Made by a program: the position numbers and the translations under genes. Under the pieces are notes generated by a model. That model was not told where the DNA came from. It worked only from the letters and a program-made list of their open reading frames with translations, and did not search any database. From Rhodothermales bacterium (GTDB taxonomy: Bacteria > Bacteroidota > Rhodothermia > Rhodothermales > VXPQ01), in assembly GCA_040904565.1 (NCBI GenBank), contig JBBDTI010000027.1, positions 1 through 46,271 of the forward strand: 46,271 bases of DNA, in the 5' to 3' direction. Each line of letters starts with the position of its first letter. Within the stretch, counting starts at the first letter, position 1. This document shows positions 38,646 to 46,271 of this stretch, piece by piece.

Positions 38646-39017
38646 ATGCTAACGCTGCACGAACCGGCAAGAACCTTCCACGTGAGCACACCTTCTTCGT
38701 CCAACAGCCCGTCCGCCGGGAGTGATCCTCAGGGTCGGGATACCGCGTCGACCGGCCGACCCAACGGCAGCCACCGCGCCAAGCGCATCTTCACGTGGGT
38801 CGTCATTGTGGCGGCGCTGCTCTTCTTCGCTTCCGTGCTCCGGGAGTCTCTGGACCCGTTCGGCGATGCACCGTATCTGGAGATCTCTCATGGGGATCAC
38901 GTGCACTACGTTCCGCGCGATCGGGATCCGCGGGTGTCGATCAGCAACTTCCCCACACAGCAACCCGGCCCGAATGAAATGATTACGCCGGAGGGCCGGA
39001 TCGTCGAGCGAGAATAG
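38646..39017 (+). CDS. Small membrane-anchored protein with a single histidine-triad motif (SHGDHVHY)
   Basis: Basic stretch, TM helix (IFTWVVIVAALLFFASVL), then YLEISHGDHVHYVP. Start is 38646 (ATG) or 38682 (GTG). Confidence 0.7.
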   Translation: MLTLHEPARTFHVSTPSSSNSPSAGSDPQGRDTASTGRPNGSHRAKRIFTWVVIVAALLFFASVLRESLDPFGDAPYLEISHGDHVHYVPRDRDPRVSISNFPTQQPGPNEMITPEGRIVERE

Positions 39018-39792
39018 CGACGAGGACGAAGGCAGCGGCCTGGACGAGAATGATCGTGGCTCCACTGGGTACGTCTACCTGGTAGGAGAGGATGAGCCCG
39101 GCCGCGGCGCTGCCGACCCCCAGACAGGAGGCGACCACGGTCATCCGACCGAACGTCGGGCTGAGGAGGCGTGCCGTCGCCGCGGGGATGACGAGAAGGG
39201 CTGCGACGAGCAGAATACCCACCACCTTAACGGATACGACGACGGTTACGGCCAGGAGCACGGAAAGGACGTAGTCGTCGCGATCGACCGGCAGCCCGTC
39301 CGCCACGGCGAGCTCCGCGTCGAATGTCGCATACGCCCATCGGCTCCACATGGGCCACAGGGCCGCGGCGGCCACAGCTACTCCAGACGTGATCCACAGG
39401 TCGACCGGCGTCACGGCCAGGATGGAACCGAACAGGTACGTGAAAGCATCGGCCGTGTACGTCTCGCGAAGAGAGAGGAATATCACGCCGAGGGCGACGG
39501 CCACCGCAAAGACGATTCCGATGGCCGTATCGCCCGCGAGTCCGGTGCTCCGCCGGATCCAGTTGATGCTCAGCGCCACGAGGATGGTGAACGGCACGGC
39601 CACCCAGAGCGGCTCCGTCTGCAGCAGGAGTCCAAGTGCGACACCTCCGAACGCCGCATGGGCCAATCCGGCACCGAGAAAGCTGAGCCGGCGCTGGACG
39701 ACGAACACGCCGAAATAGCTCGCGAGAAAACCGACGAGGCACCCGGCCACGAGGGCTCTCTGCATGAAGGCAAGACCGAACAGCTCACCCAT
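38983..39792 (-). CDS. znuB: Zn/Mn ABC transporter permease
   Basis: FMQRAL, GVFVVQRRLSF..AGLAHAAFGG, DTAIG, YLFGSIL, VGILLV.ALLVIP. Start placed at ATG 39792. Confidence 0.92.
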   Translation of the reverse strand: MGELFGLAFMQRALVAGCLVGFLASYFGVFVVQRRLSFLGAGLAHAAFGGVALGLLLQTEPLWVAVPFTILVALSINWIRRSTGLAGDTAIGIVFAVAVALGVIFLSLRETYTADAFTYLFGSILAVTPVDLWITSGVAVAAAALWPMWSRWAYATFDAELAVADGLPVDRDDYVLSVLLAVTVVVSVKVVGILLVAALLVIPAATARLLSPTFGRMTVVASCLGVGSAAAGLILSYQVDVPSGATIILVQAAAFVLVAILARRSGPPA

Positions 39793-40555
39793 GGCCGTGC
39801 CCCATCCTGAACATGGCATGCTCGTGTCCGACATGCCCGAAAGCACGGCGCAGGTTTTCCTCGGTGAGCACGTGCTCGGCGGTTCCGTAGGCTATCTGCC
39901 GCCGGTTAAGGAGCAAGACGTGTGTGGCGTGGTGGAAGGCGACATTCCAGTCGTGCGTAACCATAATGATCGTCGCCCTCCGTTGCGCCTGGTACGTCTC
40001 CAGCACGTCGTAGAGGTCCAGGGCACCGGCAGCATCGATCCCCGTCGCGGGCTCGTCGAGCAGAACGAGGTGGGGATGTCGGATCAGGCTACGGGCCAGA
40101 TAGATGCGCTGCAGCTCGCCCCCGGAGAGGGTCGACAGCTGACGCTCTGCCAGGTGGACGCCGCCTGCATGTCCGAGGGCGTCCAGCGCCGCGCTGCGCT
40201 CCGAGGCAGACACGCGGAAGGGCCATCGACCGCGCATGCCGGACACGACCAGCTCCACCGATGTGGCCGGAAATCGACGTTCCAGCGTCTTCACCTGAGG
40301 CACGTACCCGACGAGCCCGGAACCCGCCTTACGCGGGTCCCGGCGCAGCACGCGGATGCTTCCCCTCGATGGTGAAACGATACCGGCGAGTGCCTTGATG
40401 AGCGATGTCTTGCCAGAGCCGTTCGGACCGAGGACGGCTACGAAGCTACCCTCGGGGGCTGTAAACGTAACCCCGCTGAGGCCCTGCTGGGTACCGTAGT
40501 CGACGTGGAGATCGTCCACGGCGACGGCGTCATCGATCGGTTGGTTCGTTGTCAA
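39785..40555 (-). CDS. znuC: Zn/Mn ABC transporter ATP-binding protein
   Basis: GPNGSGKTS, GYVPQ, LSGGELQR, LDEPATGID, VTHD, His-rich C-terminus. Confidence 0.92.
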   Translation of the reverse strand: MTTNQPIDDAVAVDDLHVDYGTQQGLSGVTFTAPEGSFVAVLGPNGSGKTSLIKALAGIVSPSRGSIRVLRRDPRKAGSGLVGYVPQVKTLERRFPATSVELVVSGMRGRWPFRVSASERSAALDALGHAGGVHLAERQLSTLSGGELQRIYLARSLIRHPHLVLLDEPATGIDAAGALDLYDVLETYQAQRRATIIMVTHDWNVAFHHATHVLLLNRRQIAYGTAEHVLTEENLRRAFGHVGHEHAMFRMGHGHG

Positions 40556-41427
40556 TGCGATGCGTCGGAGTCGGCCAGCGCGTTCGAAATGCGTCTCGCG
40601 TTAAGGTACAGAAGATTCGGGAGGCCTTCGCCGGAAGCCATGGGATCGAGCTCTACGTGCGGGATTCCTACCGCCTCCGCGACGGCGGCTGCCGGCCGAC
40701 TGTCGTGTTGCGGTTGCGAGAAAACGGCACGCGCCCTTGCATCGCGTGCCGCGTCGATCATTCGATGGAGTCCACGCGGCGTCGGCTCGCTGCCGGAGAG
40801 CTCCTCGACGATCCCTACGACGCGGAGATCGTACCTTTCGGCGAAATAGTGAAGAAAGGGATGGGCCAGGACCACGCGCGCGCCGGCGACAGGGTCCATC
40901 ATGATGCGGAGCGAATCGTGGACGACGTCGAGCTCCTGCGCGAACGCACGGGCATTCGACCTGTACGTCGAACACCGTTCCGGTTCCACCGAACAGAGGA
41001 CGTCCGCCAGCTCGCCGGCGACGGACTTGACGGCGATCGGGTCCATCCAGAAATGCGGATCGACGCCGTGGCCGTGAAAGGCGGGCAGGCGCAGCGAATC
41101 GGGCAGCAGATCCACCAGCGCCACGTGGGACGGTGACTCCAGCGTCGCGGCCCAGCCGTCCAGCGTCTCGGATCCGTAAAAGAGCACGTCTGCTCGCGCC
41201 GCCTTCCGTGCGTCGGACGGACGGGGTTCGTACGTGTGCGGCGATGCACCGCCCGGTACGAGGACCGCGACGGGCTCGCCGGCTACCGGTGAGACCACCG
41301 CGGCGAGCGGCGGAAGGGTAGCCACGAAGCGCGCGCTCGACTCCTCTTCGCCGCGGCACCCCAGGAGCACCGAGAGCAGCAAGACGACCGTGGTCTTATA
41401 AAAACAGCTTGTAGAGGAGCTTAACAT
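40552..41427 (-). CDS. znuA: Zn ABC transporter substrate-binding lipoprotein (cluster A-I)
   Basis: Lipobox LLGC; GASPHTYEP, DPHFWMDP, AHPFLHYF, LDP. The third ligand is His, which indicates the Zn type. Confidence 0.9.
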   Translation of the reverse strand: MLSSSTSCFYKTTVVLLLSVLLGCRGEEESSARFVATLPPLAAVVSPVAGEPVAVLVPGGASPHTYEPRPSDARKAARADVLFYGSETLDGWAATLESPSHVALVDLLPDSLRLPAFHGHGVDPHFWMDPIAVKSVAGELADVLCSVEPERCSTYRSNARAFAQELDVVHDSLRIMMDPVAGARVVLAHPFLHYFAERYDLRVVGIVEELSGSEPTPRGLHRMIDAARDARARAVFSQPQHDSRPAAAVAEAVGIPHVELDPMASGEGLPNLLYLNARRISNALADSDASH

Positions 41428-43597
41428 TTCGGCCCTGTTCGGGCATTACGCTTTTAACTCTGGAAAGATGGTCCCGGTATTCCGTATCGGTAACGTTTTC
41501 GACCCCGAGGTCGATCGTGTGCAGAAAGCGGCCCGTCGTCAGATGATACTGAGCGTACGATCCGAATACGACGTAGCCGTCCGTCGGCTCCTCGAACTCA
41601 CTGACGCGGTCCTGTTCACTGGCCGATCGGACGGTGGCACCGACGGTAAGGCGATTCCAGCTGTACGAAGCGTCGATTTTCCCGCGCAGCGGGGGCATCC
41701 ACGGCAGGGGCTCGTCGCGGTCGGTGAGCGTCCCGTGCACGTATTCGGCGGACCCCGACACGGAGACCGACGGTGACGGTCGGACCGTCGCACTGGCCTC
41801 AGCGCCGATCATCCGAGCCTTCGCTCCGGTTTGCTGATAGATCGGAAGCAACGTTCGCGTGTTCATCTCGCCCGTATTCCTGGGGTAGATGAAATCGTCG
41901 ATGTCGTTGCGAAAGAGCGTCAACGAACCCGAAAGGTGCGCGCTCTCGAACTGGCCGAAGACTTCGGCGCCCAGGCCGCGTTCTACGCCGAGGTCGGCGT
42001 TCCCGATCTCGAAGGAATAGGACGCCAGGTGCGGTCCTTCCGAAAACAGCTCCTCGATGCCCGGCACGCGCAGCGACCGCATCAGAGACGCCCCCGCCGT
42101 AACGGATTCGGAGGGGTGGATGAGTCCGCGCACGGATGCCGAAACGCCGCCGAACGAGCGTGTTCGTACGATGCCGGCAGGAGATTCTCTGTCGGCGACT
42201 CGTGGACGTACCGTACGGACGTCATAGCGCAGCCCTCCCTGCAGCGTGAAACCCTCAAAGTGAAGATCTTCGTACCCGAACCCCGCCACCGTCCATTCCG
42301 TCGAGTTAGGTGTAAATGAAAAGCCCCCCGATGCATAGTCCCGATACTCGCCCCAGAATCCGACCGCACCCTTACGGAAATGTCCGTTCTGGTGGGTGTG
42401 GAAAAGCATGCTTCCGTGATAGGACAGGAGGCCGAATTCGATGCCGAGCACGTCGTCCGACTCCCACTCCTGGTGTGCGTAGCGGGATGCGGACCCGTCG
42501 ATTTCGACGCGCGGGACGAAAGGAAGCGGGTCGAAGATTTCCGCCCGCACTTCCACCCGTTCACGCTGGACGTCTATGTTGACGCCGTTCGGATGCGCCC
42601 CTACGAATCCGCCCGGAATGCCGTAGGTCGACTCGTAATAGCTGCCGGAGATTCCGGCGTGGCCCCAATCCTCGACGACGCTGCCGCCGAACGATCCGCT
42701 ATAGGTCGTCAGGGCTGTGTTTTCGAGTGGACCGATGGGCGTAGACACGTCGCCGGCTTCCCTGAGGCTTCCGTCGGCGTGCAGCGCCACGGGGCCTACC
42801 GGCGCCTCGATGCCGAAGCCGCCCGAGAACCCGGAATTCGCCGACTCCCCCTGGATGCTCGTACCGACGTTCACCTGCCGGGGCATGCTGGACGGAATGT
42901 AGCCGCGTACCACGTTGATCACGCCGCCGAGCGTGTTCGGACCGTAGATGAGGGCGGCCGGGCCGCGTATCACCTCGATCCGTTTCGCGGTGAGCGGATC
43001 GACGACCACGGCGTGGTCGGTGGACGTAGCGGATAGATCGCCCGTTCGTCCGCCATCTTCCAGTACCAACAGACGCTCCCCTCCCAGCCCGCGCAGCACG
43101 GGTCGTGCCGGAGCGGGTCCCATGGAGCGCATGGACACGCCCGGCTCGTCGGCGAGGGTCTCGGCGATGGTCGTTCCGAGGTTCTGCCGCAGTTTCTTGC
43201 CTTCGACCTGCATGGCGGCATCAGCCAGCTGATCCACTGGAGAGCTGACGCCCTGCACGATCACCTCGCCCTGCTCGATCGGCGTCACCGACATCCGCAA
43301 CGTGATGCGCAGCGTGTCGGCGGCAGCGAGCTGAACGGACCGGATGAGCGGTTCGTATCCGATACGATACGCCTTGAGCGTATACGCGTCCGGCTGAACC
43401 AATCGGATTTCGAAATAGCCGTTCCTGTCGGCCGTCGCCGATCGGTTCGCCTCCTCCAGCAGCACCTGGACGAATCCGACGGGCTCGCCGGTCTCGGCGT
43501 CTATGGCCGTACCGGCGACGGTGCTCGTGCTCTGGGCACGAGCACCCGTCACCAACGCAACGGCGAACAGGATCGCGACGAGTGTTGCTAACCGCAT
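41396..43597 (-). CDS. TonB-dependent receptor (ZnuD-like metal importer) with N-terminal CarboxypepD_reg-like domain
   Basis: Signal peptide; plug motifs ARPVLRGLGGER, DHAV, IEVIRGPAALIYG; ELFSEGPH; NVTDTEYRDHLS; C-terminal GRNVKLLYKLFL. Confidence 0.92.
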   Translation of the reverse strand: MRLATLVAILFAVALVTGARAQSTSTVAGTAIDAETGEPVGFVQVLLEEANRSATADRNGYFEIRLVQPDAYTLKAYRIGYEPLIRSVQLAAADTLRITLRMSVTPIEQGEVIVQGVSSPVDQLADAAMQVEGKKLRQNLGTTIAETLADEPGVSMRSMGPAPARPVLRGLGGERLLVLEDGGRTGDLSATSTDHAVVVDPLTAKRIEVIRGPAALIYGPNTLGGVINVVRGYIPSSMPRQVNVGTSIQGESANSGFSGGFGIEAPVGPVALHADGSLREAGDVSTPIGPLENTALTTYSGSFGGSVVEDWGHAGISGSYYESTYGIPGGFVGAHPNGVNIDVQRERVEVRAEIFDPLPFVPRVEIDGSASRYAHQEWESDDVLGIEFGLLSYHGSMLFHTHQNGHFRKGAVGFWGEYRDYASGGFSFTPNSTEWTVAGFGYEDLHFEGFTLQGGLRYDVRTVRPRVADRESPAGIVRTRSFGGVSASVRGLIHPSESVTAGASLMRSLRVPGIEELFSEGPHLASYSFEIGNADLGVERGLGAEVFGQFESAHLSGSLTLFRNDIDDFIYPRNTGEMNTRTLLPIYQQTGAKARMIGAEASATVRPSPSVSVSGSAEYVHGTLTDRDEPLPWMPPLRGKIDASYSWNRLTVGATVRSASEQDRVSEFEEPTDGYVVFGSYAQYHLTTGRFLHTIDLGVENVTDTEYRDHLSRVKSVMPEQGRNVKLLYKLFL

Positions 43598-43603
43598 ATC
43601 AAT

Positions 43604-44056
43604 TCACTCAACATGAACGTGGATGTCGGGCGTCGTGAAATCAGCGTGGCCTCCGTGCATCAGCTGCACGCTAAGATCCGTAACACCTGCGGCCCCCGGC
43701 GTGAGACTAAACGACCAGTCGCCCGTCTGCGAGGCGGTAACGACACTTTCGTCCGCAATCTCCCAGCCGAGGCTGAAGTCCTCGTCGAGATCTTCCGCAT
43801 GGATGCGGTCGCCGTCGTGGTCGAGAAACTCGACGTCGATCTCCACGCTGCCTCCATCGGCGGCGATCTCCAGCTCCCCGGTAACCTCGCCCTCCAGCAC
43901 GCGGACGACTTCCTCGCCGCCGACCATCAGGGCAACGCCCTCGACTTCCGCGTGATCGTCATCAAGCTCGTCCTCTACGGGATTGTCGCAGGCCGCGACC
44001 AACCCGATGAATCCGAATACCAAAACGGCAGACAAAATGCGCTTATACGTAGACAT
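43604..44056 (-). CDS. Acidic His-bearing lipoprotein, putative metal-binding partner of the TonB receptor
   Basis: AAGGAG SD before ATG 44056; lipobox VAAC; DDDHAEVEG, HDGDRIH, MHGGHADF, IHVH. Confidence 0.8.
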   Translation of the reverse strand: MSTYKRILSAVLVFGFIGLVAACDNPVEDELDDDHAEVEGVALMVGGEEVVRVLEGEVTGELEIAADGGSVEIDVEFLDHDGDRIHAEDLDEDFSLGWEIADESVVTASQTGDWSFSLTPGAAGVTDLSVQLMHGGHADFTTPDIHVHVE

Positions 44057-44057
44057 G

Positions 44058-44193
44058 TCCAGTACTCCTTGATAAATGTGTCCTGCAGACGGGATCGACG
44101 TACCCTGATGCGAACAGGGAGGCACGTCTCCTGGGGACCGCCGTAGCGCGGCGGTCCATCTAGCAATTCAGGACATCACCGGAGGAGCCCGGA
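44058..44193 (-). promoter_or_regulatory. Predicted SD-sequestering mRNA structure linking leader-peptide RAPP codons to lipoprotein RBS
   Basis: On the mRNA, TCCGG-GCTCCT-...-TGTCCTG (RAPP..stop codons) is complementary to CAGGACA-...-AGGAGT-A-CTGGA. Internal hairpins at 44097-44128 and 44135-44157. Confidence 0.65.
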
Positions 44194-44548
44194 TCTGGCG
44201 GGACGCGGGTGCGCGCGTCGAATGCACCGCGTCGTGAGGGAAAAGCTTGTCATCTACGTACCGAAACGGGACGACGGGGTCGGACGGTCTCGGCGTGTCG
44301 AGCGTCAGGCGCGCGCACAGGTCACAGTTGGGATTGTGCGGAACGGTCCGTTCCTCGACGAGAAAATCGAGCGCCTGGATACCGCCGGGACCGGCAGCGA
44401 TCTGAGACAGATCGGCCTGGGACGGTCCGTGACGATGCTCGAGACTCCGGATATGCGTGAGCTCGTGCGCAAATGGCAGTGCGATTCCGCCGACCGTAAA
44501 AACGGTCAGCAGAATCATCGCATATCGCTGGAGCCTGGTGCGCATCAT
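44168..44548 (-). CDS. DUF2946-like (CruR/CutF-type) exported leader/arrest peptide with His cluster, CxxC and C-terminal RAPP
   Basis: N-terminal signal/TM, AHELTH..EHRH, HNPNCDLC, Pro-rich linker, ends RQIRAPPVMS*; directly upstream of a lipoprotein and TonB receptor. Confidence 0.8.
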   Translation of the reverse strand: MMRTRLQRYAMILLTVFTVGGIALPFAHELTHIRSLEHRHGPSQADLSQIAAGPGGIQALDFLVEERTVPHNPNCDLCARLTLDTPRPSDPVVPFRYVDDKLFPHDAVHSTRAPASRQIRAPPVMS

Positions 44549-44670
44549 ACCGTGACGTACAGTGTGACCTGTCAGGACCATGTATCCTGACCCGTCCACA
44601 GAAGTTTCCGAGGGCGGTCTGTTGGCGGCGGCGATTCACCGTCGGATATCACGCGGCGCATCGCTGCGGT

Positions 44671-45255
44671 CTATGCCGCGCTGGTATAGAGCTCGTAGTC
44701 CGCTTCGACGTCGCCCCTGGACATGTCTCGCAGCTTGCGGCGTAGCAGTCGGCGACGGAACGCACTGATGTGATCGACGAACAGCACGCCGTCGAGGTGA
44801 TCGATCTCGTGCTGAATGACGCGAGCCAGCATCTCCCCGACCTCCAGCTCGCGGGCCTCGAAGTTTTGATCCAGGTACGTGATCCGAACGCGCAACGGCC
44901 GAACGACGATTTCTCGGATATCCGGAATCGACAGACAACCTTCCTCGAACTCGCTAGCCTCGTCGCTTTCCCAGACGATGGTCGGGTTGACGAACACCAT
45001 CGGCTGTGGTGGCAGGTTCTCCAGATCTCCCGGAACGTCTGACTCGTCTGCCGCCTCGTACATGGGCGTCACGTCCGCCACGAAAACGCGTTCGGTCCGA
45101 CCGACCTGGGGTGCCGCCAGACCGACGCCCTCTGCGCCGCGCATCGTCTCGATCATATCGTTGATCAGCTGCTGCAGCTCTTCGCTGTCGGACGAAACGT
45201 CTTCCGTTTCAGTGCGAAGAGCCGGATCGCCGTAAACGCGAATGGGCAATATCAT
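44671..45255 (-). CDS. def: Peptide deformylase
   Basis: GVGLAAPQVG, EGCLSIP, QHEIDHLDG. Start placed at ATG 45255. Confidence 0.97.
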   Translation of the reverse strand: MILPIRVYGDPALRTETEDVSSDSEELQQLINDMIETMRGAEGVGLAAPQVGRTERVFVADVTPMYEAADESDVPGDLENLPPQPMVFVNPTIVWESDEASEFEEGCLSIPDIREIVVRPLRVRITYLDQNFEARELEVGEMLARVIQHEIDHLDGVLFVDHISAFRRRLLRRKLRDMSRGDVEADYELYTSAA

Positions 45256-45406
45256 ACTGCGGGATCCTGTTGCCTCATGGAGCGGGTCATGCGGCGGGCA
45301 TCGGTTGGGAATCGTAGGGTATCCCGTGCCCGCCTGGTCACTTTCTAAAACACGGTGTAGGTACGAAAAGTGCCGCTTTAACCAAATCGTCACCGTCCAC
45401 CAACGG

Positions 45407-45853
45407 CTAAGAAGGGAAGTGGGGGGATGGCGGCCCTTCATCGATATACTCCTGAAGGATGACGGCCGCGGCGGCCGCGTCGACCCGACCCTTCTCCCTG
45501 CGGTCCTTCCGGCGCACGCCCGCATCGACCAGGGCCTCGACGGCCCGTTCCGAGGAGTACCGTTCGTCCCACGTCTCCACCGTGACCGAAGGAAAGGCTG
45601 TCCGGATCCTGTTTACGAACGGCCGCACGCGTTCGATCGCCCTGCCCTCCTCGCCGTCCGGCGTAAGCGGCCAGCCGACAACCACGGTATCGAAGCCCGG
45701 TTCGGCGTGCATCTCAACGAGGCGCGCAAACGCGGCCTCCACCGTATAGGTCCCTTCCGCCTGTGCAAACACGCGAAGCGGGTCGGACACCGCGATGCCG
45801 ACCCGCTTCGTTCCGTAGTCGATCCCTATCAGACGCGGGTACTGCGTATTCAT
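45407..45853 (-). CDS. ruvX: YqgF/RuvX pre-16S rRNA nuclease
   Basis: IGIDYGTKRVGIAVSD, VVGWP, WDERYSS, VDAAAAAVILQEY. Confidence 0.93.
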   Translation of the reverse strand: MNTQYPRLIGIDYGTKRVGIAVSDPLRVFAQAEGTYTVEAAFARLVEMHAEPGFDTVVVGWPLTPDGEEGRAIERVRPFVNRIRTAFPSVTVETWDERYSSERAVEALVDAGVRRKDRREKGRVDAAAAAVILQEYIDEGPPSPHFPS

Positions 45854-45893
45854 GTTAACCTGCGAGACCCGGACCCGGCGCTTCGAACGGCGG

Positions 45894-46271
45894 TCAGCTG
45901 CTCGTCCCGTTTTTGGCGTATTCGGGTATGCCGTTTCGGTCCGCGCTGCCCTTCGGAACCTTGTAATTCAATTCCTGCAAAGGGGTCTGCAGCACCTCTT
46001 TCAACCGTTTGCTAGGCTTGAAGTGCGTCTTCCGCCGGCTGGGTATGAAGACTGTCTCATTCGTCTTCGGATTTCGAGCCTTCGGCTTCGCCTTCGTCTT
46101 CTTGACCTCGAAGACGCCAAAGTCACGCAGTTCGATCCGAATTTCCGGATCCGCCTCGATCATCATATCTCCGAGGGCGTTGATCACCGCGCTGACCCAG
46201 GGCTCGCTCTTATATATGGGCTCTCCCATTAAATCCGCGACGCGACGTGCTACGTCTTTCTTCGTCAACGT
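45894..46271 (-). CDS. HU/IHF family DNA-binding protein (start probably just outside window)
   Basis: TKKDVARRVA, IELRDFGVFEV, ARNPKTNE.V.IP, HFKPSK. The frame is open to the window edge. Confidence 0.92.
   Translation of the reverse strand, partial: TLTKKDVARRVADLMGEPIYKSEPWVSAVINALGDMMIEADPEIRIELRDFGVFEVKKTKAKPKARNPKTNETVFIPSRRKTHFKPSKRLKEVLQTPLQELNYKVPKGSADRNGIPEYAKNGTSS

Follow-up and report, generated by a model that had tools for sequence, protein, structure and literature searches.

A candidate RAPP arrest-peptide leader whose last codons and stop codon pair ahead of a zinc-type uptake operon in Rhodothermales

The window analysed here, the whole 46,271-nt stretch of contig JBBDTI010000027.1 (Rhodothermales bacterium, assembly GCA_040904565.1), carries a small leader open reading frame (ORF) ahead of genes for a lipoprotein, a TonB-dependent receptor and a ZnuABC-type importer, all on the minus strand. 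Comparison of related loci indicated that the last codons and stop codon of this leader form an RNA helix with the segment upstream of the next start codon, and that this helix is real and covaries. We propose, with somewhat better than even confidence, that the leader is a cis-acting arrest peptide of the CruR/DUF2946 kind, which gates the lipoprotein, TonB-receptor and ZnuABC operon through melting of the helix by a ribosome stalled at a C-terminal RAPP motif.

Anatomy and conservation of the leader

The leader (44168-44548; ATG at 44548, TGA at 44170-44168) encodes 126 aa plus the stop; an alternative GTG start at 44599 (143 aa) appeared in the ORF listing, but the homologues favoured the ATG at 44548. 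All the elements attributed to it in the initial annotation, a product of about 126 aa with a hydrophobic N-terminus, a His cluster, CDLC and RAPP 41 residues further on, were present in the sequence. The hydrophobic segment AMILLTVFTVGGIALPFA (about residues 9-27, ~18 residues; 44468-44524), preceded by the basic residues R3, R5 and R8, is a putative signal anchor or signal peptide, and a basic N-terminus followed by a hydrophobic stretch of ~18 residues, as read from the sequences, was kept across the homologues. At the outer end of this segment lies a putative metal ligand pair, H28-x3-H32 (44453-44467), with both histidines invariant in alignment A1 and the pattern P-x2-H-x3-H recurring in 46 of 47 database homologues; the leader has additional histidines at H38 and H40. 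The CxxC motif C75-D-L-C78 (44315-44326), found in 45 of those 47 proteins and with both cysteines invariant among 18 aligned homologues, is separated by exactly 41 residues from R120-A-P-P123, which belongs to the putative arrest motif I119-R-A-P-P123 (ATC CGG GCT CCT CCG; 44180-44194). Read in frame, the gene ends CGG GCT CCT CCG GTG ATG TCC TGA, that is, RAPP, V-M-S and stop; the TGA that had been taken as the end of the ORF directly after CCGG is out of frame, and translation runs on through V-M-S to 44170-44168. This correction has little effect on the idea and brings the anatomy of the leader closer to that of CruR, in which RAPP likewise stands three residues from the end.

With the protein as query, homologues turned up in 23 of 61 related genomes when the own genome is counted, among them 17 of the 18 members of its family and 5 of 42 genomes from other families of the order. 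Since two genomes have two copies each, these amounted to 25 loci, with identities of 23-45%. All 25 end in IR[AG]PP, and the spacer between CxxC and RAPP measured 41 residues in 23 of the 24 complete loci and 42 in the other one. The columns invariant in the 18-sequence alignment were G20, P25, H28, H32, C75, C78, I119, R120, P122 and P123, with L14 nearly so, and the stretch between CxxC and RAPP was poorly conserved. A profile search of a large protein database returned 48 proteins, the window's own among them, all unnamed or hypothetical and assigned to Salinibacter or Rhodothermales wherever an organism was stated. Every one of the 47 fetched homologues contained IR[AG]PP, 45 had a spacer of 40-42 residues, and the tail after RAPP comprised 3 residues in 31 of them, 8 in 15 and 2 in one. 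When 151 phylum-wide genomes were searched with the profile, only 4 of them gave matches, three other members of the order besides the own genome, and the new matches likewise end in R[AG]PP. The isoleucine, arginine and last proline of IRAPP occupy the same three positions as Ile162, Arg163 and Pro166, described as invariant in the GIRAGP motif of SecM in the part of PMC10951299 available to us. Taken across homologues, the invariant motif, its spacing and the tail fit a RAPP-type arrest leader. A protein search of the own genome gave a single match and hence no paralogue of the leader, and a six-frame search of the same genome for small ORFs ending in R[AG]PP gave 23 matches, all of which, except the leader, were spurious-looking Arg/Pro-rich frames.

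The kinship with DUF2946 (PF11162) claimed at the outset stood for the family and not for the window's protein itself. Two orthologues, L007 (24.6 bits) and L008 (25.3 bits), exceeded the gathering score of 23.7 bits over profile positions 3/5-117 of 117, and 11 of the 18 aligned homologues matched the model at E≤10; the window's leader gave no match, whether at E≤0.1, at E≤10 in a scan of its own genome or at E≤10 as an alignment member. Its membership of DUF2946 is thus transitive only. The leader spacer is rigid but, at 41 residues, lies 4 below the 45 reported for DUF2946 and hence outside the 1-2-residue tolerance of that family. The leader family therefore looks like a peripheral branch of DUF2946 that is partly reached by the Pfam model, and the window's leader like a peripheral DUF2946/CruR-like arrest-peptide candidate, adding to the evidence that this model misses whole branches of its family.

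Additional arrangements were noticed among the homologous loci. In G010 (L027, 8508-15784) there is a tandem duplication in the order def, leader, TonB receptor, leader, lipoprotein, TonB receptor, and the same is found in G011 (L003/L025); in the upstream copy of both genomes, a lipoprotein-type signal peptide with a lipobox is fused to the receptor N-terminus, and there is no separate lipoprotein gene. G044, a genome of the same order, holds three divergent leader copies (L043-L045), with the endings SRAPP and GRAPP, and a receptor-type N-terminus is readable downstream of L043.

The stop-codon helix and its covariation

The minimum free energy (MFE) structure predicted by RNAfold for 44250-44040 (-81.4 kcal/mol) contained the long-range pairing that had been proposed for this region, including the Shine-Dalgarno (SD) sequence of the lipoprotein gene. 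In this structure, UCCGGGCUCCU and GGUGAUGUCCUG (44193-44169, with the UG of the stop included) pair with CAGGACA...UUAUC.AGGAGU.CUGGA (44085-44058). The 5' strand of the helix (44169-44193) thus consists of the R-A-P codons (P1a, the anti-SD part) and of the GTG ATG TCC TG(A) tail and stop (P1b). The 3' strand (44058-44085), which ends 2 nt before the start codon, runs from CAGGACA (44085-44079), the partner of the stop-codon strand, through the SD sequence AAGGAG at 44070-44065, located 8 nt ahead of the lipoprotein ATG. The two hairpins of the loop, previously described as nested, turned out to be adjacent, the first at 44135-44157 (GGACCGCCG/CGGCGGUCC, with no U-tract) and the second at 44092-44131. 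An Rfam scan of 43000-46271 at E≤1 produced no match.

Support for this helix came from comparing loci. RNAalifold was run on an unguided MAFFT alignment (A2) of 16 of the 20 same-family loci, leaving out L005 and L015-17, which carry insertions of ~280-300 nt, and it selected a helix that joins the final codons and stop to a segment ahead of the next start; 4 of the 6 pairs of this helix show compensatory changes. Counting nine pairs on the same 16-locus alignment, 74.3% of the cells were paired, compared to 68.5 ± 1.6% after shuffling (1 of 500 shuffles reached the observed value); six of the nine pairs showed changes on both sides (3/500 shuffles) and 11 cells were double-changed (0/500 shuffles). 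Slid registers of the helix had only 21-54% of their cells paired, and most of the unpaired cells in the proper register belonged to loci in which MAFFT had misplaced the 3' arm. Duplexes calculated locus by locus recovered the helix, always in one register, for 17 of the 20 same-family loci; the U and the G of UGA were paired in every case, and pair types varied between C-G and U-A at -4, between U-A, G-C and A-U at -6, and between G-C and A-U at -7. The arms vary widely, as illustrated by CUGAUCUGA:UCAGAUCAG in L012 and GGUAAUGUC:GACAUUACC in L004, and cognate arms fitted each other better than permuted ones (2 of 20000 permutations among 11 representatives; 9 of 720 among six genera). Because the per-locus register table was fitted to each sequence, we placed more weight on the permutations and on the unsupervised counts. 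Across loci, the stop-codon helix ends 6-25 nt before the start codon, and it survives inverted-repeat insertions of 60-300 nt in its loop (L009, L010 and L005).

A covariance model was also built from 8 loci of the related genus g8. It retrieved no more than close relatives, and its alignment to the window was partial (8.7 bits, E 6). The pair counts were therefore made on alignment A2 instead.

The insertions are of a recurrent type. Repeats of 60-300 nt starting TAAGGATAC... and ending ...GTATCCTTA are present right after the leader stop in L005, L009, L010 and L015-L017 (g8), and the same inverted-repeat elements lie upstream of the leader in L002 and L024. They look like a repeat family of the miniature inverted-repeat transposable element (MITE) type, and those situated within the helix loop leave the helix intact, L015-17 excepted.

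In the window, the arrest codons themselves contribute to the masking of the SD. GCU and CCU are rare in the eight neighbouring genes (9.6% of Ala and 7.1% of Pro codons, respectively), and when the 384 synonymous encodings of RAPP were paired with the initiation region of the window, only 4 paired better than the natural one and 4 equally well. CCU is the first proline codon in 19 of the 25 loci, and the alanine codon is GCU in 13 of 19. Near-optimal anti-SD codon choice (top 0.4-4.7%) was found for the window and for 8 loci of one genus.

Modelled stall and the downstream uptake operon

The usual footprint of a ribosome extends from about -12 to +15 nt. Placing the P and A sites according to the RAPP stall state described in the available part of PMC10951233, the predicted stall has CCT 44185-44183 in the P site and CCG 44182-44180 in the A site, so that the ribosome covers ~44197-44170, the whole 5' strand of the helix. 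When this footprint was forced to be single-stranded, the probability of being unpaired in the window rose from 0.0-0.1 to 0.3-0.8 for AGGAG and from 0.1 to 0.6-0.7 for the UG of the AUG, and the effect of the modelled stall in L012 and L004 was similar. These values come from a per-nucleotide view, which replaced a mixed average over positions -16 to +3.

The gene that we propose to be the first regulated one encodes a lipoprotein of 150 aa (43604-44056; lipobox ...VAAC, acidic and His-rich after the Cys), a conserved partner of leader and receptor. No Pfam or NCBIfam family was assigned to it and a PDB sequence search gave nothing below E 0.19; it is a member of an unnamed family present in Balneolota, Gemmatimonadota and Ignavibacteriota, and its Atlas model reached a TM score of 0.65 to an extra domain of archaeal ZnuA-family binding proteins. 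The acidic, His-rich stretch suggests a surface-exposed partner of the receptor that may capture metal. The TonB-dependent receptor gene follows (41396-43597; CarboxypepD_reg, Plug and barrel), with the ZnuD-type family as its best NCBIfam match (4.4e-60, below the curated cut-off; 2.7e-23 for a copper receptor family). Next come the genes of a ZnuA-ZnuC-ZnuB-type ABC importer (38983-41427), overlapping head to tail and recognised by Pfam ZnuA, ABC-3 and ABC_tran; among NCBIfam models, AztC/AztB (zinc) were the best for its components and MntA for the ATPase, all far below curated cut-offs. The best solved relative of the binding protein is Synechocystis ZnuA (1e-29), with which three His-bearing motifs were aligned, the aligned histidines being what we take to be zinc ligands. 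A gene for an M23 peptidase lies downstream of the importer genes on the same strand. By gene context, zinc rather than copper is the likeliest metal; judged by the leader residues, a His2 plus Cys2 set would suit Zn(II), though copper would be compatible with it as well.

Upstream, def (peptide deformylase; 44671-45246), a conserved neighbour, is separated from the leader by 122 nt. All 10 same-family genomes examined share the order def, leader, lipoprotein and receptor on one strand. ZnuABC genes follow the receptor in the window and in 4 other non-g8 genera (5/5), one of which shows only ZnuA before the contig end, and in 5 g8 genomes unrelated genes follow it. The gap between def and leader is ~12-20 nt in two genera (G004 and G001) and ~12-122 nt across the non-g8 genera, and a gap this short means that the uptake operon may be co-transcribed with the housekeeping gene def. 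A scan of 43500-44800, which for promoters covered the sigma-70-like type, detected neither such a promoter nor a terminator-like site, and inspection by eye revealed no conserved operator upstream of the leaders. An inverted repeat, GTCAGGA-N7-TCCTGAC, is located at 44567-44587, 20-40 nt upstream of the leader ATG, and may represent an operator or a hairpin; the upstream regions inspected by eye at homologous loci did not show it.

The proposed switch, its alternatives and known systems

We propose the following sequence of events; for this leader, the stall, metal binding, which metal is bound and in which direction the switch responds are inferred. The N-terminal anchor would insert into the membrane during translation, and the ribosome would stall at RAPP, covering exactly the 5' strand of the helix, whose 3' strand lies just upstream of the lipoprotein start and here includes the SD. 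For as long as the stall lasted, the initiation region would be open and the downstream genes would be translated; once released, the ribosome would read V-M-S, terminate and depart, allowing the helix to re-form and block initiation. By binding to HxxxH and CxxC, both invariant, metal would pull on the nascent chain and trigger release, so that metal sufficiency would shut uptake off. Since the regulated genes are importers, this logic, in which as in CruR the metal relieves the arrest and turns expression off, appears more plausible than that of CutF.

A more specific version, which we regard as possible though doubtful, makes the nascent leader a zinc sensor: Zn(II) bridging His2 and Cys2 would pull the chain outward and release the RAPP arrest, after which the helix would close again. 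With the ribosome stalled, HxxxH would already be at the anchor's periplasmic end, and CxxC, being 44-47 residues away from the peptidyl-transferase centre, would be roughly level with the translocon. If the operon is co-transcribed with def, the translational switch may be the main zinc control rather than an addition to Zur.

A number of results weigh against the proposal, some of them concerning the helix itself. It is missing in 3 of the 20 same-family loci, L015-17, which form a sub-lineage whose leaders have a RAPPAA tail and are followed by a large insertion of the inverted-repeat type, and it was not significant in the 5 loci from other families. Considered alone, the window is only modestly unusual: its single-sequence fold has a z-score of -2.25, with 4 of 200 shuffles at least as good, and its 5' arm was bound at least as well by 13 of 300 shuffled 3' arms and by 51 of 419 other windows of the locus (12%). 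Single-sequence duplex statistics discriminate poorly in GC-rich DNA, and it is on the comparative data that we base the view that the helix goes beyond chance. The pairing of the RAPP codons with the SD was not optimised in L020, L004, L006, L012, L014, L010, L005 and L015-17, and the optimisation was absent from the other four same-family genera and from the loci of other families. Being limited to 9 of the 25 loci, it indicates that the conserved core is the stop-codon helix and that the anti-SD extension is lineage-specific. The initial annotation, which had the arrest codons sequester the SD and expected covariation of anti-SD and SD across orthologues, is accordingly borne out in part: codon choice does mask the SD in the window and the stop-codon helix covaries (17/20 loci), but SD masking by the arrest codons is no family-wide rule and its extension over the SD is lineage-limited.

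Other results of this kind concern the outcome of the stall and the metal. In three of the four g8 loci folded (L002, L011 and L024) the modelled stall leaves the SD paired to an upstream CCUUUUCU pyrimidine run, whereas in the fourth (L007) the SD is partly opened, and the mean accessibility over -16 to +3, calculated in a 90-nt context, rises in some loci only. The earlier claim that a ribosome stalled on RAPP melts the stem and exposes the ribosome-binding site is therefore sustained in silico for the window but not for these three loci, in which the SD pairs anew. In a crude count, SD-like words before ORF starts were barely enriched (322 vs 268 of 2218; 14.5% vs 12.1%), which implies that occlusion of the start region as a whole may outweigh that of the SD as such; the 3' end of the 16S rRNA was not found in the assembly. 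The assignment of the metal relies on family matches below cut-off. Finally, the output of CruR is Rho-dependent termination and its export signal is dispensable, according to the part of PMC9426467 available to us.

This last point leads to an alternative that we deem rather unlikely, namely that the same arrest leader acts on transcription termination as in CruR, the helix being secondary. Stalling would then either keep Rho off a loading site within the leader's C-rich 3' half or, in g8, act on an intrinsic terminator in the spacer. In CruR, the closest characterised relative, Rho acts between the first and the second gene, and the second half of the leader is C/T-rich and unstructured, as far as described in PMC9426467. 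In the window, the 3' half of the leader is rich in C and poor in G (C 0.39-0.42, G 0.25, C/G up to 1.6), but C/G skew predicts rut sites only weakly. The g8 spacers present a 7-bp GC hairpin followed by UUUUGUUUU (L002 1471-1488 and equivalents), terminator-like and situated in the helix loop before the 3' strand, whereas the window spacer has no terminator-like site and its equivalent hairpin lacks a U-tract. Moreover, the covariation of the stop-codon helix argues for selection on the pairing itself. Both mechanisms are compatible, and a termination layer may coexist with the helix.

We consider it improbable that the same leader and helix work with the opposite polarity, the metal prolonging the stall and turning the operon on, so that the receptor would be induced by its substrate, as is known for TonB receptors in other systems. 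A precedent for this polarity is CutF, where copper enhances stalling and opens the SD stem-loop (PMC9973294; 10.1101/2025.02.05.636593, both in their available parts). However, the downstream genes here are importers, normally repressed by their metal, and CruR, with RAPP, CXXC, a fixed spacer and a TonB receptor in common with the present leader, is described as relieved by metal, whereas CutF is described with a PPP-type, EF-P-sensitive motif and CxxxC in place of RAPP and CxxC. Least probable of all, in our judgement, is that the product of the ORF is a small membrane protein that persists in the cell, for instance as a metal-binding accessory to the receptor, and that RAPP and the pairing have no regulatory role. 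Its invariant His and Cys residues could equally form a mature metal site, and its gene adjoins those of the receptor and the lipoprotein as possible partners. Against this reading, conservation is concentrated in the anchor, the four ligand residues and IR[AG]PP, the last at a constant distance from CxxC across 41 residues that diverge freely. In the survey data accessible in PMC12992588, proteomes are reported to avoid RAPP/RGPP, which is enriched instead at the C-terminal ends of small exported products of upstream ORFs (uORFs). The covarying helix and the synonymous codon choice that fits the pairing also speak against it.

Returning to the proposed stall-melted switch, its components are not without precedent, and the novelty initially claimed was too strong: arrest at RAPP (CruR), an SD stem melted by a stall (CutF, SecM) and RAPP uORFs before TonB receptors have all been published, so that the mechanism itself would not be new even if confirmed. 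Our literature search found no publication on a zinc-responsive arrest peptide, a search that did not extend to supplementary lists, which may perhaps name Salinibacter or Rhodothermales proteins. If the proposal is true, metal-sensing arrest peptides, a class so far shown only for copper and in two Proteobacteria, extend to Rhodothermales, to a zinc-type uptake operon and to a His2Cys2 ligand set. The same 25 nucleotides would then serve as stall site, as stop codon and as anti-SD strand, a clean natural case for which natural compensatory variants are at hand to guide the design of reporters.

The comparisons that follow take each known system as far as the parts of the cited sources available to us describe it. 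CruR (Bp2923) of Bordetella pertussis exerts RAPP-dependent control over the downstream TonB transporter and needs its CXXC for the copper response (PMC9426467). It shares with the present leader the position as a small first gene of a TonB-transporter operon, an N-terminal export-like segment, the CXXC, a C-terminal RAPP three residues before the end and a rigid CXXC-RAPP spacing. It differs in that the spacer is 45 residues there and 41 here, where an invariant HxxxH is found in addition, and in that its RAPP is written in frequent codons, whereas GCU-CCU is rare here and complementary to the SD of the next gene. CruR works by Rho-dependent termination, with no SD-masking helix reported for it in that part of the source, and belongs to a copper context (PepSY_TM, OprC-type) in Proteobacteria, as opposed to the zinc-type context (ZnuD-like, ZnuABC) in Rhodothermales.

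CutF of Rhodobacter capsulatus is an exported, DUF2946-like, metal-sensing leader, as the present one is predicted to be, and its C-terminal stall melts a stem that shields the next SD (PMC9973294; 10.1101/2025.02.05.636593). There, CxxxC and a PPP-type, EF-P-dependent motif take the place of CxxC and IRAPP, the metal strengthens the stall, and the regulated gene encodes a detoxifying multicopper oxidase and not an importer. In CutF the stem is a local hairpin between the genes, whereas in the present helix the leader's last codons and stop supply one strand. CutF-like proteins are described as widespread, Bacteroidota included, with TonB-like genes as their second commonest neighbours, and not all of them are thought to be copper-specific.

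With SecM, ApdA and ApdP the leader shares an I-R-A-(G/P)-P core, in which the arginine and the A-site proline are critical, and, as predicted here, an exported nascent chain, a stall that opens a downstream initiation region and release by pulling on the chain (PMC10951233, PMC10951299, PMC7897499). Those peptides monitor Sec/YidC activity and not metal, and regulate the protein-localisation machinery; the feature typical of their class, a mask over the initiation region that is disrupted by the stall, is predicted in the window and is not general across the homologues. According to a proteome survey (PMC12992588), uORFs encoding RAPP/RGPP are over-represented upstream of TonB receptors in Gram-negative phyla and their products are small and carry a localisation signal, a class into which the present leader fits; that survey is statistical and, in the part available, describes no RNA structure, ligand residues or zinc context. 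We conclude that the leader most likely adds one more case to the known CruR/CutF class of metal-sensing translational switches, putatively distinguished from the known members by its zinc-type context, by its His2Cys2 set and by arrest codons that serve as the anti-SD.

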